A DNA stretch of 64,000 bases. Source: Candidatus Omnitrophota bacterium (GTDB lineage Bacteria; Omnitrophota; Gorgyraeia; 1-14-0-20-64-10). This document shows, one piece after another, positions 747 to 12,989 of this stretch. The stretch is from contig JAHFFE010000002.1 of the NCBI GenBank assembly GCA_023248155.1, positions 124,824 to 188,823 of the forward strand, in the 5' to 3' direction. Made by a program: the position numbers and the translations under genes. The notes under the pieces are model-generated. The model did no database searches, had not been told where the DNA came from, and was given only the letters and a program-made list of their open reading frames with translations. Position 1 is the first letter of the stretch, and every line of letters begins with the position of its first letter.

Positions 747-1286
747 GTGATTAAGTGCGATCTCTGCTCCAAGAATGAAGCCGTTTTCCATTTAAGCGAG
801 GTCATTAACGGCAAGAGCAGGGAACTGCATTTGTGCGAGTCCTGCGCGCGCGAAAAAGGCGCCGAGCAGCTGGCGTTAAACGCCCCGCTTATTGACCCCG
901 CCGGAACGGCCGCCGGAAGTTTGGCTTCATTGCTCGCCGGCCTGGCTGATCTGGGCACTAAAACTCCGCCTGGCCAAAAACCGGTCACGCCCAAAATAAC
1001 CTGTTCCGGGTGCGGCATGACCTTCGCGCAGTTCCGCAAGGCAGGCCGGTTTGGCTGCGCGTCCTGTTACGGCGCTTTTTCCCGTTATTTGACGCCGCTG
1101 CTGCGCAGGATTCACGGTGCCGTTCAGTATTCTGGAAAGTCTCCCAATCGCAAAGCCCCGAAAAGAATCTCCGCGAAAGAACGTCTGCTCCGTCTGAAGA
1201 CGGAACTTCAATCGGCGGTCTCAGCCGAGGAGTTTGAAAAAGCTGCCGCTTTGCGCGACAAGATCCGCTTGCTGGAAAAGAAGTAA
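747..1286 (+). CDS. mcsA: Protein-arginine kinase activator McsA (Cys-rich Zn-finger-like repeats plus C-terminal UVR motif)
   Basis: CxxC pairs (CDLCSKN, CESCAREK, CSGCGM, CASCYG). UVR-like C-terminus (EEFEKAAALRDKIRLLEKK). Sits immediately upstream of mcsB. Confidence 0.8.
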   Translation: MIKCDLCSKNEAVFHLSEVINGKSRELHLCESCAREKGAEQLALNAPLIDPAGTAAGSLASLLAGLADLGTKTPPGQKPVTPKITCSGCGMTFAQFRKAGRFGCASCYGAFSRYLTPLLRRIHGAVQYSGKSPNRKAPKRISAKERLLRLKTELQSAVSAEEFEKAAALRDKIRLLEKK

Positions 1287-2341
1287 TGAAACAGCCGCTG
1301 ACATTTGACAGCCTTCTGCATCAAACCGGGGAGTGGCTGCGAAGTACCGGCCCTCATCACACAATTGTTCTTTCGTCGCGCATCCGCCTCGCGCGTAATT
1401 TAAACGGCCAGCCGTTTCCGCATTGGGCCTCTTCGGCCCAGCGCACCAAAATTGTTCGCAAGGTGGTGGCGGCCGTCGGGAAATCCAGTTTTTTGAAAGG
1501 GTCGCTTATTCTGCCGATGAAAAAACTATCGGCGCTGGACAAGCAATTCCTCGTCGAGCGGCATTTGATCAGCCGCGATTTCGCGCAGCCGCCCGATGAA
1601 AAAGCGGTGGTCATCAGCGACCGCGAGATTGTGTCCATCATGATCAACGAAGAAGATCATCTGCGGCTGCAGGTGATGCAGTCAGGGCTCCGTCTCGATG
1701 AAGCCTGGGCGATTTTGCAACGGATTGATCAGGAACTTGAGAAACAACTCGACTACGCGTTTCGCGATGACTGGGGCTATCTGACGGCCTGTCCCACCAA
1801 TGTAGGGACCGGTATGCGCGCATCGTGCATGCTGCATCTGCCATGCCTGGTGATGACGCGGCAAATGGAGCGCGTGCTCAACGCGATTTCCAAACTGGGA
1901 ATGACGGCGCGCGGATTTTACGGCGAGGGGACCGAAGCTTCCGGTAATTTTTATCAGTTATCCAACCAGGTGACGCTCGGTATTTCCGAGACTGACACAA
2001 TCAATCAGTTGGACCGGATTATCCAGAAGGTGGTCGAGCAGGAGGAAGCGGCCCGCAAAGTGCTGCTGAAAAATCACCGTGAAATTCTGGAAGATAAAAT
2101 CTGGCGCGCCTATGGCACGCTGCGCAGCGCCGCGCAGATCAGCTCCGGCGAAGCGGTAAAACTGCTGTCGCTGGTCCGGCTGGGCACCGACATCGGACGG
2201 ATTCCCGTTAAAGACCCGGCGCTGATGAACCGTCTTTTTGTTCAGATTCAGCCGGCCTATCTGCAGAAACTGGAAGGGAAGATTCTCTCTCCGGATGAGC
2301 GCGACAAGCGCCGCGCGCAGCTTCTGCGCGAAGCGTTTTAA
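1286..2341 (+). CDS. mcsB: Protein arginine kinase McsB (ATP:guanido phosphotransferase family)
   Basis: Phosphagen-kinase active-site signature CPTNVGTGMRAS. Length 351 aa. Start overlaps the mcsA stop (ATGA). Confidence 0.85.
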   Translation: MKQPLTFDSLLHQTGEWLRSTGPHHTIVLSSRIRLARNLNGQPFPHWASSAQRTKIVRKVVAAVGKSSFLKGSLILPMKKLSALDKQFLVERHLISRDFAQPPDEKAVVISDREIVSIMINEEDHLRLQVMQSGLRLDEAWAILQRIDQELEKQLDYAFRDDWGYLTACPTNVGTGMRASCMLHLPCLVMTRQMERVLNAISKLGMTARGFYGEGTEASGNFYQLSNQVTLGISETDTINQLDRIIQKVVEQEEAARKVLLKNHREILEDKIWRAYGTLRSAAQISSGEAVKLLSLVRLGTDIGRIPVKDPALMNRLFVQIQPAYLQKLEGKILSPDERDKRRAQLLREAF

Positions 2342-2436
2342 CCACAGCCTCAGATAGTTAGCAATAGAATAACTTAGATAATTTTTCTGCTATTTATCCC
2401 GTCACATAGGTTATACTTCTTTTATAGCACCTACAA

Positions 2437-9829: not shown

Positions 9830-10348
9830 ATGAGAAATTTAATACGAATGGAAGAAATTGAGAATCATATCCTATTCGTCCGCGGGCACAAAGTAATGTT
9901 GGATGAAGGCTTGGCGCGGCTTTACGGTGTTTCTACAAAGCGTTTAAATGAACAGGTGCGACGAAATCGCGCTCGTTTTCCAAAAGATTTTATGTTTCAG
10001 CTTACGCCTGAAGAGGCCCGCTTTTTGAGGTCGCATTTTGCGACCTCAAGTTCGGAGCATGGAGGCCGGCGGTATCTCCCCTACGTGTTTACCGAACAAG
10101 GGATCGCCATGCTTTCCAGCGTGCTAAACAGCGAGAGAGCAGTCCAAGTGAATATTGCCATCATGCGAGCTTTTGTCAAATTGCGGAAGATTCTATCGAC
10201 CCATCGAGAATTTGCTCGAAAGCTTTCAGATTTGGAGCGTAAGTGGGAACTCCATGATGAACAAATACATTCGGTTTTTGAGGCAATCCGCCAGCTTATG
10301 GCGCCTGAACCTACGCGTCGCCGACGAATTGGATTTCACCGAGTGTAG
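9830..10348 (+). CDS. ORF6N-domain protein (KilA-N-related, phage antirepressor-like DNA-binding protein)
   Basis: The N-terminal half (..IENHILFVRGHKVMLDEGLARLYGVSTKRLNEQVRRNRARFPKDFMFQLTPEE..) is typical of the ORF6N family. The gene and its flanks are AT-rich relative to the locus. Confidence 0.65.
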   Translation: MRNLIRMEEIENHILFVRGHKVMLDEGLARLYGVSTKRLNEQVRRNRARFPKDFMFQLTPEEARFLRSHFATSSSEHGGRRYLPYVFTEQGIAMLSSVLNSERAVQVNIAIMRAFVKLRKILSTHREFARKLSDLERKWELHDEQIHSVFEAIRQLMAPEPTRRRRIGFHRV

Positions 10349-10493
10349 GGATAAATACCCCCGCTTTTACCTGTTCCAATTCTTGTTTCATCCCACCTAT
10401 TTTGTGCGATAATTATTAGTAGGGGTATTGGATTATTATTATCATTAATTCAAAGGCGGTTTACCGCCATATAGAGGAAGGAGAGTAAGCCAA

Positions 10494-12989
10494 ATGAATA
10501 TGTTCAACCGGTTCACGGAACGGGCCCGGAAGGTGATTTTGCTGGCGAAAGAAGAGGCCAAGCGATTTAATCACGATTACATCGGTACCGAGCATATTTT
10601 ATTGGGACTCATCCGCGAAGGCGAAGGGGTTGCCGCCGCGGTTTTGCAGAATTTGGGGCTTTCTTCCGATCAGATCCGGCTGGAAGTTGAGAAATTGGTT
10701 CAGCTGGGGCCTTCCACGATTGTCTCCGGGGATATTCCGTTCACGCCGAAAGCCAAGAAAGTCATTGAGCTGGCGATGGACGAGGCACGTAACCTGGGAC
10801 ACAACTACATCGGCACCGAACATCTTTTACTGGGCTTGATCCGTGAGGGGGAAGGAATCGCCGCTCAGGTATTGGTGAATTTGGGACTCGACCTGGGCAA
10901 GGTTCGGCAGGAAGTTATGGAACTGCTCGGTTCTTCATCGGGCAGTAATTATCCGGCGCAGGGAGGATCTGCTCCGTCGGGTCAGCCGGCGGCGGCTTCC
11001 GGTAAAACGAAAACACCGGCGCTCGACGCGTTCGGCCGCGATTTGACGGCGCTGGCGCGCGAGAAGAAACTCGACCCGGTGATTGGCCGCAAGAACGAGA
11101 TCGAACGGGTGATTCAGATTTTATCCCGCCGCACGAAAAACAATCCGGTGCTGTTGGGCGAGGCCGGCGTCGGAAAGACGGCAATCGTCGAAGGCCTGGC
11201 GCAGCAGGTGATCAGCGGCGAAATTCCGGAGATGCTCAAAGACAAGCGCGTGATTATTTTGGATCTGGCGCTGATGGTGGCCGGCACGAAGTACCGCGGC
11301 CAGTTTGAAGAGCGGATCAAGTCGGTCATGGACGAAATGAAGCGCTCTGAGAATGTGATTATCTTTATTGATGAGCTGCATACGCTGGTCGGTGCCGGCG
11401 GCGCCGAGGGCGCGATTGACGCTTCGAATATTTTAAAGCCGGCCTTGGCGCGCGGCGAGATTCAGTGCATCGGCGCGACGACGCTCGACGAATACCGCAA
11501 ATACATTGAAAAAGACGCCGCGCTGGAGCGGCGTTTTCAGACTGTCATTGTCGAAGCGCCCAGCGTAGACGACACGATCGAGATTTTAAAGGGAATCCGC
11601 GACAAGTACGAAGCGCACCACAAGGTGAAATATTCCGATGCTGCGCTGGAAGCGGCCTCGAAACTTTCCGAGCGGTATATCTCGGGCCGGTTTTTGCCGG
11701 ACAAAGCCATTGACCTGATTGATGAGGCCGGATCGCGCGCGCGGTTGTCGGTGCTCTCGACGCCGCCGAATTTAAAACAGCTGGAAGAGCGGATCGAAGT
11801 GCTGCGCAAGGAAAAAGAGGGATCGGTCAAGGGGCAGGATTTTGAGAAGGCCGCCTCTCTGCGCGACCAGGAACGGGAAGCCAAATCTGACCTGGAAAAA
11901 GCCAAGCGCGAATGGACCAAGTCGAAATCGGAATCTCAGCCGGTGATAACGGCCGAAGATATCGCGCAGATCGTCTCGAAATGGACCGGCATCCCGGTCT
12001 TCCGTCTTGAGGAGAAAGAAACGCAGAAACTGCTGCGGATGGAAGAGGACCTCAGCGGCCATGTGATCGGGCAGGAAGAGGCGATCAAGGCGATCGCTAA
12101 TGCGATCCGCCGTTCGCGCGCCGGATTGAAAGATCCGAAGCGGCCGATCGGGTCGTTTATTTTCCTGGGACCGACGGGCGTGGGCAAAACATTGCTGGCG
12201 CGCGCGCTGGCTGAGTTTTTGTTTGGCAACGCCGAATCGATCATTCAGGTCGATATGTCCGAGTATATGGAAAAATTCAATGTGTCGCGTCTCGTGGGCG
12301 CTCCTCCCGGATATGTCGGCTATGAAGAGGGCGGCCAGCTGACCGAGCGGGTCCGCCGCAAGCCGTATTCGGTGATTCTGCTCGACGAGCTTGAAAAAGC
12401 GCACCCCGACGTGTTCAATCTGCTGCTGCAGGCCCTCGAGGAAGGGCGTTTGACCGACAGTTTCGGGCGGAAGGTCGACTTCCGGAACACGGTGTTGATC
12501 ATGACTTCCAACGTGGGCGCTGAACTGCTGAACCGGCAGGGATCGCTCGGCTTTAAAACAGCCCAGGCCGACGCGACGTATCAGGATATGCGCACGCGGC
12601 TGCTCGAGGAGATGAAGAAAAGTTTCAAGCCGGAATTTTTGAACCGCGTGGACGACATCATCGTGTTCCACCCGCTCAACCGCGAAGATCTGCACAAGAT
12701 CGTCGAGATCGAACTTCAGAATGTGCAGAAACAGCTGAAAGAGCAGGGAATCTCGATTGAATTGACGCCGGCGGCCAAGGAATTCCTCATCGATAAAGGG
12801 TTTGATCCGAACTACGGCGCGCGTCCGCTCAAGCGGACGATTTCCAAATATCTGGAAGACGCGCTGGCTCAGGAAATCATCGCCGGCCGTTTCAAGGAAG
12901 GCGCTGTTATTTTGGTTGATGCCGCCGACAAGGAGAATCTGACCTTCCGGCAGGCCGAAGTTTCCACGCCGACCGCGCCGCGTTCCTAA
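10494..12989 (+). CDS. clpC: ATP-dependent Clp protease ATP-binding subunit ClpC (class III AAA+ chaperone)
   Basis: Duplicated Clp N-domain repeats ([20 protein letters not shown].. and [20 protein letters not shown]..). Two Walker A motifs ([16 protein letters not shown]). A middle UVR-like motif. Length 831 aa. Confidence 0.95.

Follow-up and report, generated by a model that had tools for sequence, protein, structure and literature searches.

The protein arginine kinase McsB, once activated by McsA, phosphorylates arginines, and proteins marked in this way are degraded by ClpC-ClpP. In Bacillus subtilis and other Firmicutes, the genes form the class III heat-shock operon ctsR-mcsA-mcsB-clpC. 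A 64,000-nt stretch of DNA from Candidatus Omnitrophota (the window) contains orthologues of mcsA, mcsB, and clpC in the same order and on the same strand, with a giant open reading frame (ORF) and an ORF6N-domain gene between mcsB and clpC. The question raised by this locus is whether it represents a stress operon that has lost its repressor and been broken by foreign DNA. The original prediction, made from the sequence, took the Firmicute operon as its baseline and read the absence of ctsR and the separation of clpC as rewired regulation, possibly with mobile-element involvement. We report here an analysis of the window and of related loci, and consider another explanation likely to be correct: the locus has a ctsR-less ancestral gene order whose mcsB-clpC spacer has turned into a variable site, which here holds a giant gene of a modular protein family and the ORF6N gene.

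The ctsR gene was sought by tblastn with the Pfam-verified CtsR of a Brevibacillus locus (L049) as the query. No match was found in the window or in any locus from the Planctomycetes-Verrucomicrobia-Chlamydiae superphylum, taken here to include Omnitrophota (PVC); ctsR was recovered only in the three Firmicute control loci, just upstream of mcsA. The CtsR box, represented by the tandem heptad consensus RGTCAAA-NAN-RGTCAAA, yielded five sites with 2 to 3 mismatches in the window, with 3.8 expected, none of them near mcsA or clpC, and the same scan located a perfect one in L049, 38 bp ahead of ctsR. A scan for CIRCE, the HrcA operator, produced 0 matches. The predicted absence of ctsR and of a CtsR box was therefore borne out, both searches having found their targets in the Firmicute controls. 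Because the two defining features, the ctsR gene and the CtsR operator, were both searched for and are both absent, the window locus does not belong to the CtsR regulon. A literature search on McsB and CtsR in PVC phyla gave no useful result.

Loci surrounding McsB relatives were collected from genomes, metagenomes, and exact protein matches, and the window proteins were mapped onto them, yielding 166 loci with mcsB. Every source-named McsB homologue among the matches listed belongs to Candidatus Omnitrophica/Omnitrophota, with identities mostly of 57 to 68% and one of 90%. In 122 of 140 evaluable loci, ilvE immediately precedes mcsA (median gap, 61 bp); the exceptions are the three Firmicute loci used as controls, several Planctomycetes, and a handful of further loci. 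The start of clpC lies no more than 400 bp from mcsB in 109 of 135 evaluable loci; the remainder are mostly Planctomycetes-labelled loci without clpC at this position, plus Omnitrophota and PVC loci with an insert. L002, L168, and L169 display the order secA-lnt-aminoacyl-tRNA synthetase-lolCE-lolD-ilvE-mcsA-mcsB-clpC-X-mlaEFD-PIN-ispDF, in which no regulator is interposed and ctsR does not occur within 10 kb, and the segment ilvE-mcsA-mcsB-clpC-X-mlaEFD-PIN-ispDF is found in L002, L089, and L168. The ancestral order in Omnitrophota and related PVC phyla would thus be lolCE-lolD-ilvE-mcsA-mcsB-clpC-X-mlaEFD, with no ctsR. The missing ctsR is the ancestral state of this lineage and not rewiring, because the relatives share the ctsR-less order and CtsR is reportedly a regulator of low-GC Gram-positive bacteria. 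The Firmicute operon is accordingly the wrong baseline, since the closest McsB homologues are from Candidatus Omnitrophota, where the ctsR-less order is normal.

The adjacency of ilvE and mcsA was also seen to span Omnitrophota, Verrucomicrobiota, and other PVC metagenome-assembled genomes (MAGs), with gaps that are often shorter than 30 bp or with overlapping genes. To our knowledge, nothing links a branched-chain aminotransferase functionally to the arginine-kinase/ClpC system.

In addition to the shared orthologues, most relatives of the window resemble the Firmicute operon in that mcsA, mcsB, and clpC are contiguous. The window locus differs from it in lacking ctsR and the CtsR operator and in having ilvE as the upstream partner, and its organism is a diderm PVC bacterium, with the diderm lipid-transport genes mlaE, mlaF, and mlaD downstream. 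It also differs in contiguity: mcsA and mcsB adjoin, whereas clpC lies 8,152 bp past mcsB and has a conserved upstream element of its own. Gene X (12994-14379, + strand; 461 amino acids), between clpC and mlaE, has no Pfam, NCBIfam, or PADLOC match. Its position is kept in many Omnitrophota relatives, with identities of 24 to 35% where detectable and 85% in L087.

The window genes were called from an ORF list with Pfam and NCBIfam profile searches (Table 1). The predicted layout, from ilvE through mcsA, mcsB, the 7.3-kb ORF, and the ORF6N gene to clpC, holds, including the 6-bp gap between ilvE and mcsA (741-746, TCGGCT). The mcsA product scores 159.5 bits on the NCBIfam McsA model, under the Bacillus-trained cut-off of 210, and has the CxxC pairs and the UVR motif. 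The NCBIfam matches of the clpC product (ClpB, ClpA, and others) are all below their cut-offs, with no ClpC model among the matches listed; the protein has the ClpC-type architecture, in which an N-domain is combined with a short UVR middle domain and an LGF loop for ClpP docking.

Among the 128 loci with both genes, the median distance from mcsB to clpC is 64 bp, and the gap often consists of just a ribosome-binding site. The 8,152 bp of the window are the extreme of this set, in which the next largest gap is 1.75 kb. The mcsAB-clpC split is real and lineage-specific, and the separation of mcsB from clpC by about 8 kb of atypical DNA is as predicted. Had the relatives universally carried the same arrangement, the original prediction would have lost its ground; they do so with respect to the missing ctsR, and at the split most of them are without the insert. 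In the lineage of the window, the normally tiny spacer would have become a variable site. Its content appears to have turned over by gain, module replacement, and decay, because related genomes hold different cargo at the same site (Table 1). The ORF at this site in L086 has the same leader and junction motifs as the window gene (described below) and, by reading of its sequence, other modules than the window gene, namely, GHKL-like and M23-peptidase-like ones; its last visible module is the start of the family C-terminal domain and matches that of the window. The ORF6N gene, 79-amino-acid ORF, and PIN_3 toxin gene at 11059-12759 of L169 were read as a PIN toxin-antitoxin pair with the inverted ORF6N gene.

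A chimeric contig with unrelated DNA joined between mcsB and clpC would produce the same picture. The assembly stems from a metagenome, and the one identical copy of the giant protein, on an ENA contig of 13 kb whose start lies inside mcsB (L083), may stem from the same reads; the McsB of the window had no exact match in the contig collection. The junction of mcsB with the giant gene was nevertheless found independently in L001 (JGI 3300056725) and L086 (Logan SRR22387919), and the junction of the giant gene with clpC in L087 (GCA_964607585.1). As both junctions recur in other samples, they are not an assembly artefact, and we regard this explanation as extremely improbable.

Table 1. Features of the ilvE-mcsA-mcsB-clpC region of the window and content of the mcsB-clpC spacer in related loci
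Sequence	Feature	Position	Strand	Evidence or remarks
Window	ilvE (branched-chain aminotransferase), 5′-truncated by the window start	18-740	+	Pfam Aminotran_4, 1.4e-49; NCBIfam ilvE_I
Window	mcsA (activator of protein arginine kinase), GTG start	747-1286	+	NCBIfam McsA, 7e-47; Pfam UVR; two CxxC pairs
Window	mcsB (protein arginine kinase)	1286-2341	+	NF002194, 436 bits (cut-off, 385); Pfam ATP-gua_Ptrans PF00217, 4.5e-70
Window	AT-rich spacer, mcsB to giant gene	2342-2436		GC 0.337
Window	Giant modular gene, one uninterrupted ORF	2437-9732	+	2,431 amino acids, 7.3 kb
Window	Signal-peptide-like leader, amino acids 1-50	2437-2586	+	Ends AYA-LR plus first SGAEE motif
Window	Two paralogous modules, amino acids 313-588 and 589-890	3373-5106	+	Each a transmembrane helix, ~200-residue domain, transmembrane helix, KKPEAGQEE
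Window	HATPase_c (GHKL ATPase), inside module of amino acids 996-1746	7324-7659	+	Pfam, 2.6e-14
Window	Recurrent module M7, amino acids 1848-2274	7978-9258	+
Window	Conserved family C-terminal domain, amino acids 2270-2431	9244-9729	+	Ends ...GFEEQLAASTAA
Window	Spacer, giant gene to ORF6N gene	9733-9829		GC 0.392
Window	ORF6N-domain gene (KilA-N-like DNA-binding protein)	9830-10348	+	Pfam ORF6N, 3.9e-34
Window	clpC upstream region	10349-10493	+	Decamer TGCGATAATT, 79-nt leader, hairpin, ribosome-binding site; GC 0.379
Window	clpC (class I AAA+ unfoldase)	10494-12989	+	Pfam Clp_N (twice), AAA, UVR, AAA_2, D2-small; LGF loop at residue 685
Window	Gene X (461 amino acids), mlaE, mlaF, mlaD	12994-16716	+	Conserved downstream synteny
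L001 (McsB 90% identical; JGI 3300056725)	Family gene 76 bp past mcsB			Different module order
L086 (McsB 68% identical; Logan SRR22387919)	Family ORF, at least 1,203 amino acids, 107 bp past mcsB			Same leader and junction motifs
L087 (ClpC 97% identical; GCA_964607585.1)	Giant gene C-terminus, 406 bp with decayed ORF6N trace, clpC
L168 (sister of L086 in McsB tree)	117-amino-acid ORF			C-terminal half of family C-terminal domain, a remnant
L169, L170 (sister to window clade)	Inverted ORF6N gene, two small ORFs, PIN_3 toxin			1,955 bp
L002, L089	Empty mcsB-clpC spacer
L018 (more distant PVC MAG)	531-amino-acid ORF	11142-12737		Metallophosphatase/5′-nucleotidase-like by reading of translation
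L074 (more distant PVC, Verrucomicrobiales MAG)	179-amino-acid ORF	2767-3306		IS200/RAYT-like by reading of translation

The giant protein has a single Pfam match, HATPase_c at amino acids 1630 to 1741, even with each module searched separately at E values up to 1, and PADLOC gave no match for the gene. A hydropathy scan indicated the leader and about five transmembrane segments. The leader shares 66% identity with that of L001, 53% with P0122, and 37% with P0123. The paralogous modules reflect a duplication (3367-4301 and 4123-5118) whose end regions are 70 to 77% identical in DNA (direct repeats D1 and D2). A word-index search with the whole protein retrieved three homologues: one is the identical copy, and the other two are partial relatives whose contexts are unrelated. 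The pieces shared with the latter are whole modules bounded by a short peptide: amino acids 1845 to 2277 correspond to amino acids 152 to 569 of P0122, and amino acids 70 to 317 to amino acids 767 to 1000 of P0123.

This peptide, the junction motif [AS]G-x-EE, occurs in ten copies in the giant protein and in none of the other window ORFs of at least 150 amino acids. Its rate is 4.1 per 1000 amino acids, compared with a background of 0.12 in six-frame ORFs of at least 200 amino acids from 82 loci and the window (~597,000 residues); other long ORFs (1,200 to 2,261 amino acids) contain zero. Across six proteins, 30 instances conform to [AS]-G-[QLAMF]-E-E, with K, R, Q, or N as the usual next residue. 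The motifs lie between domains, outside the Pfam domain envelopes except for one at an envelope edge, and the one that follows HATPase_c starts 4 amino acids past that domain. Because the motif codons vary synonymously, the constraint is on the peptide and not on the DNA. The alternatives that the motif is a DNA-level repeat or an internal ribosome-binding site were ruled out, given this synonymous variation and the lack of an in-frame start following it. A literature search on the motif strings returned only unrelated papers.

With the C-terminal domain as query, the word-index search returned only 2 matches, and an exhaustive, profile-free search with amino acids 1848 to 2431, which found 89 proteins, was needed to reveal the family. 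About 75 of these share only the last ~160 amino acids, always at their own extreme C-terminus, with protein lengths of 71 to 2,997 amino acids and the tail consensus ...INA[SA]G[LA]EE.[LF]AR.RAA. Many members start with a signal-like leader of consensus ALPSPAFALR. The domains found between leader and tail in the relatives include Sigma70_r4, Trypsin_2, Peptidase_M23, HTH_3, ROK, methyltransferases, HATPase_c_2, 2-hydroxyacid dehydrogenase, and WD40, and homologues of module M7 are present in P0122, P0147, P0151, P0166, and others. The C-terminal domain of the window protein aligns to the relatives at 34 to 66% identity. Its AlphaFold2 model (predicted local distance difference test score [pLDDT], 90.7) has a five-stranded alpha/beta Rossmann-like fold with three G-x-EE motifs at helix starts; Foldseek searches against the PDB returned only weak, generic Rossmann matches. 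Module M7 was modelled with a pLDDT of 85.9 and a predicted TM-score of 0.88, and Foldseek found no match to a solved structure in the PDB (best E value, 0.9; TM-score at most 0.13). By these sequence features and models, the family is defined by a signal-like leader, modules that are unrelated to each other and linked by [AS]-G-[LAQMF]-E-E, and a 160-residue, predicted Rossmann-like C-terminal domain, and the giant protein of the window has all three. Genomes in which the mcsB-clpC spacer is empty may carry family members elsewhere. As a side observation, the family proteins P0127 to P0214 end in ...A-R-x-R-A-A, and the window protein ends in A-S-T-A-A (9697-9729).

The AT-rich spacers and the compositional shift noted in the original prediction are real: the spacer GC is 0.34 to 0.39, with 0.559 for the window, the GC content at third codon positions (GC3) is 0.51 in the giant gene and 0.46 in the ORF6N gene, with 0.55 to 0.77 in the host-like genes scored, and the codon usage of both inserted genes is atypical. 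These properties would fit a recent mobile element, such as a prophage remnant or integrative island, that brought in the giant gene together with an ORF6N "antirepressor" and broke the stress operon. The ORF6N gene does match PHROG anti-repressors (8e-29); its match to three PADLOC candidate models of PDC-S05, a candidate defence family, is stronger (best, 6.9e-59), and a relative occurs in just 5 of 50,697 phage records. Mobile-DNA-rich flanks of Omnitrophota giant genes have also been reported (10.64898/2026.06.07.730766). A perfect 10-nt inverted repeat (TATTTATCCC / GGGATAAATA) is present at both insert edges (2391-2400 and 10348-10357); as an element end it was rejected and judged a chance occurrence, being one of 27 comparable pairs and absent from L001 and L087. 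Searches with Pfam, PADLOC, and PHROGs found only HATPase_c and ORF6N in the insert, and these together with a tRNA scan and a repeat search found in it no integrase, transposase, tRNA, or direct-repeat duplication. Moreover, the giant gene or its remnants occupy the same site in genomes whose McsB is 68 to 90% identical, pointing to long residence, and family members are scattered in ordinary chromosomal contexts. The giant gene is a member of a scattered chromosomal family and not a phage gene. Of the predicted mobile-element involvement, the ORF6N gene and the low GC3 stand in its favour, and the lack of an integrase, transposase, tRNA, or convincing repeat counts against it; such involvement is weakly supported at best, and we consider a recent mobile element unlikely.

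L169 carries an inverted ORF6N copy of 57% identity at the same site. The copy in L087 is decayed and retains an internal palindrome, TTGAGGTCGCATTTTGCGAC(C/T)TCAA. In the window this is a perfect 11+11 palindrome, TTGAGGTCGCA-TTT-TGCGACCTCAA, within the ORF6N coding sequence (10018-10062), where it encodes LRSHFATS, and it is the best-preserved piece of the decayed L087 copy (L087 ~300-345).

The reading of the spacer as a variable site invites comparison with hypervariable regions or integration hot spots that separate conserved housekeeping genes; 1,909 of these have been called across Omnitrophota chromosomes (10.64898/2026.06.07.730766). As in those, conserved flanks (mcsB and clpC) enclose cargo that differs between close relatives, and the cargo includes a toxin-antitoxin pair and a defence-candidate gene. 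The spacer differs from them in that no recombinase or att-like repeats were seen and in that its commonest cargo is one protein family rather than typical mobile-element genes.

Upstream of clpC, the decamer TGCGATAATT (10405-10414) resembles an extended -10 element in form. It is the sole copy in the window, where no other is found even at one mismatch, and it also lies 33 to 79 nt before clpC in L087, L168, and L089, the last of which lacks the giant gene. The last ~125 bp before clpC (10372-10496) show only a handful of differences from L087, counted on the printed alignment, and the flanking coding DNA is visibly more diverged. The 79-nt leader contains the hairpin GGCGGTTTACCGCC (10455-10468). 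Relative to L089 and L168, the leaders of the window (10415-10493) and L087 have about 45 extra nt, made up of an AT-rich run and this hairpin. An RNA thermometer in the leader was rejected: its fold is no more stable than those of shuffled sequences (z = -0.97), and the ribosome-binding site is unsequestered. In the mcsB-giant gene spacer, a TATACT-like element lies ~24 nt before the start codon and is also present in L001 and L086. Judged from sequence conservation, the conserved promoter-like element TGCGATAATT probably serves clpC as a promoter of its own, whatever lies upstream, and in the window, where clpC is uncoupled from mcsAB, the gene probably relies on a promoter that it already had. 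Given that just 6 bp separate ilvE from mcsA, co-transcription of mcsA and mcsB with ilvE is probable. The three spacers contain no + strand terminator-like hairpin, so that read-through from ilvE to clpC is possible as well. With respect to the predicted rewiring, the physical uncoupling of clpC from mcsAB and its own conserved element stand, and the missing ctsR, being ancestral, drops out of the argument. The mcsA-mcsB-clpC part would function as in Firmicutes, and McsB without CtsR would have arginine marking and substrate delivery to ClpC-ClpP as its only role here.

The co-orientation of all the genes and the hairpin-free spacers would also suit a functional placement, in which the arginine-kinase/ClpC system has the modular protein as its client or regulator, one possibility being a polyprotein unfolded or processed by ClpC and another a protein with its ...AA tail as a degron. 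C-terminal LAA (A-A) tails are degrons read by Clp unfoldases, and the conserved R-A-A or T-A-A tails of the family recall them by analogy; furthermore, at least five of the genomes sampled, which belong to two McsB clades, have family genes or remnants in this spacer. Yet all four other family members with readable context are not near mcsB or clpC, the close relatives L002 and L089 have no gene at the site, and other relatives have unrelated cargo there (the toxin-antitoxin pair and the IS200-like and metallophosphatase-like genes). We consider functional placement quite unlikely.

Several points weigh against an ancestral ctsR-less order with a variable spacer. The ctsR search covered 64 kb of this genome and the 10-kb flanks of the relatives. 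Occupied and empty states of the spacer are interleaved on the McsB neighbour-joining tree, and this patchy occupancy would fit either ancestral presence with losses and module exchange or repeated insertion. The L001 and L086 contigs end before clpC, so the placement of the family gene between mcsB and clpC is inferred for both. The promoter and co-transcription statements were drawn from sequence conservation, and scanning for sigma-70 and terminator consensus sequences gave no excess of sites over shuffled sequences.

Giant proteins have been described from this phylum, with size thresholds of at least 10,000 amino acids (Nielsen & Lui 2026, bioRxiv 10.64898/2026.06.07.730766) or an ORF of more than 20 kb (Seymour et al. 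2023, PMC10066038). The window protein shares with them the phylum, a signal peptide, transmembrane helices, mostly unannotated sequence, HATPase_c, unrelated enzyme-type domains tiled in relatives, and poor sequence conservation. At 2,431 amino acids (7.3 kb), it is far below the cut-offs of 10 to 20 thousand amino acids. The cleavage points of giant Omnitrophota proteins are unknown according to West-Roberts et al. 2023 (bioRxiv 10.1101/2023.11.21.568195). That work, Nielsen & Lui 2026, and Seymour et al. 2023 (10.1101/2023.11.21.568195, 10.64898/2026.06.07.730766, and PMC10066038, respectively) mention neither the junction motif nor the conserved leader nor the conserved C-terminal domain, and linker and C-terminal-domain terms occur in neither of the two preprints (10.1101/2023.11.21.568195 and 10.64898/2026.06.07.730766).

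An analogy is offered by proteins of other systems that combine an export-type leader, unrelated modules, short conserved peptides between them, and a conserved terminal domain. MARTX toxins and viral polyproteins carry several functional modules on one chain, which is cut at short conserved junctions. The window protein differs from them in that no processing protease domain was identified in it, and there is no sequence or fold similarity. The junction motif may mark processing sites. That it is a processing or junction signal of Omnitrophota polyproteins, at which the module string is cut or hinged, is a tentative idea to which we give only a modest chance.

Elsewhere in the window, Rfam and tRNA scans gave no match. 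A reverse transcriptase gene (58366-59943, + strand; 525 amino acids) matches Pfam RVT_1 (2e-21) and a PHROG reverse transcriptase. It has a GC content of 0.385 and a GC3 of 0.35, the lowest of the window genes scored, is flanked by heptosyltransferase (Glyco_transf_9) genes, and looks like a foreign insertion, e.g., a retron, a defence reverse transcriptase, or a group II intron remnant.

The presence of mcsAB and clpC does not imply a CtsR regulon, which corrects an annotation reflex, and what appeared to be a stress operon without its repressor dissolves into the ordinary arrangement of PVC bacteria and Omnitrophota. Across Omnitrophota and Verrucomicrobiota, a tight and deep linkage joins the arginine-kinase/ClpC genes to ilvE. 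For Omnitrophota giant proteins, the literature leaves open whether the product acts as one chain or is cut up, a question that a conserved inter-module peptide could make testable. If the processing idea is true, the motif would provide the cleavage points that West-Roberts et al. called missing, and the mcsB-clpC spacer would be a favoured location for genes of this kind, perhaps because their products are handled by ClpC.

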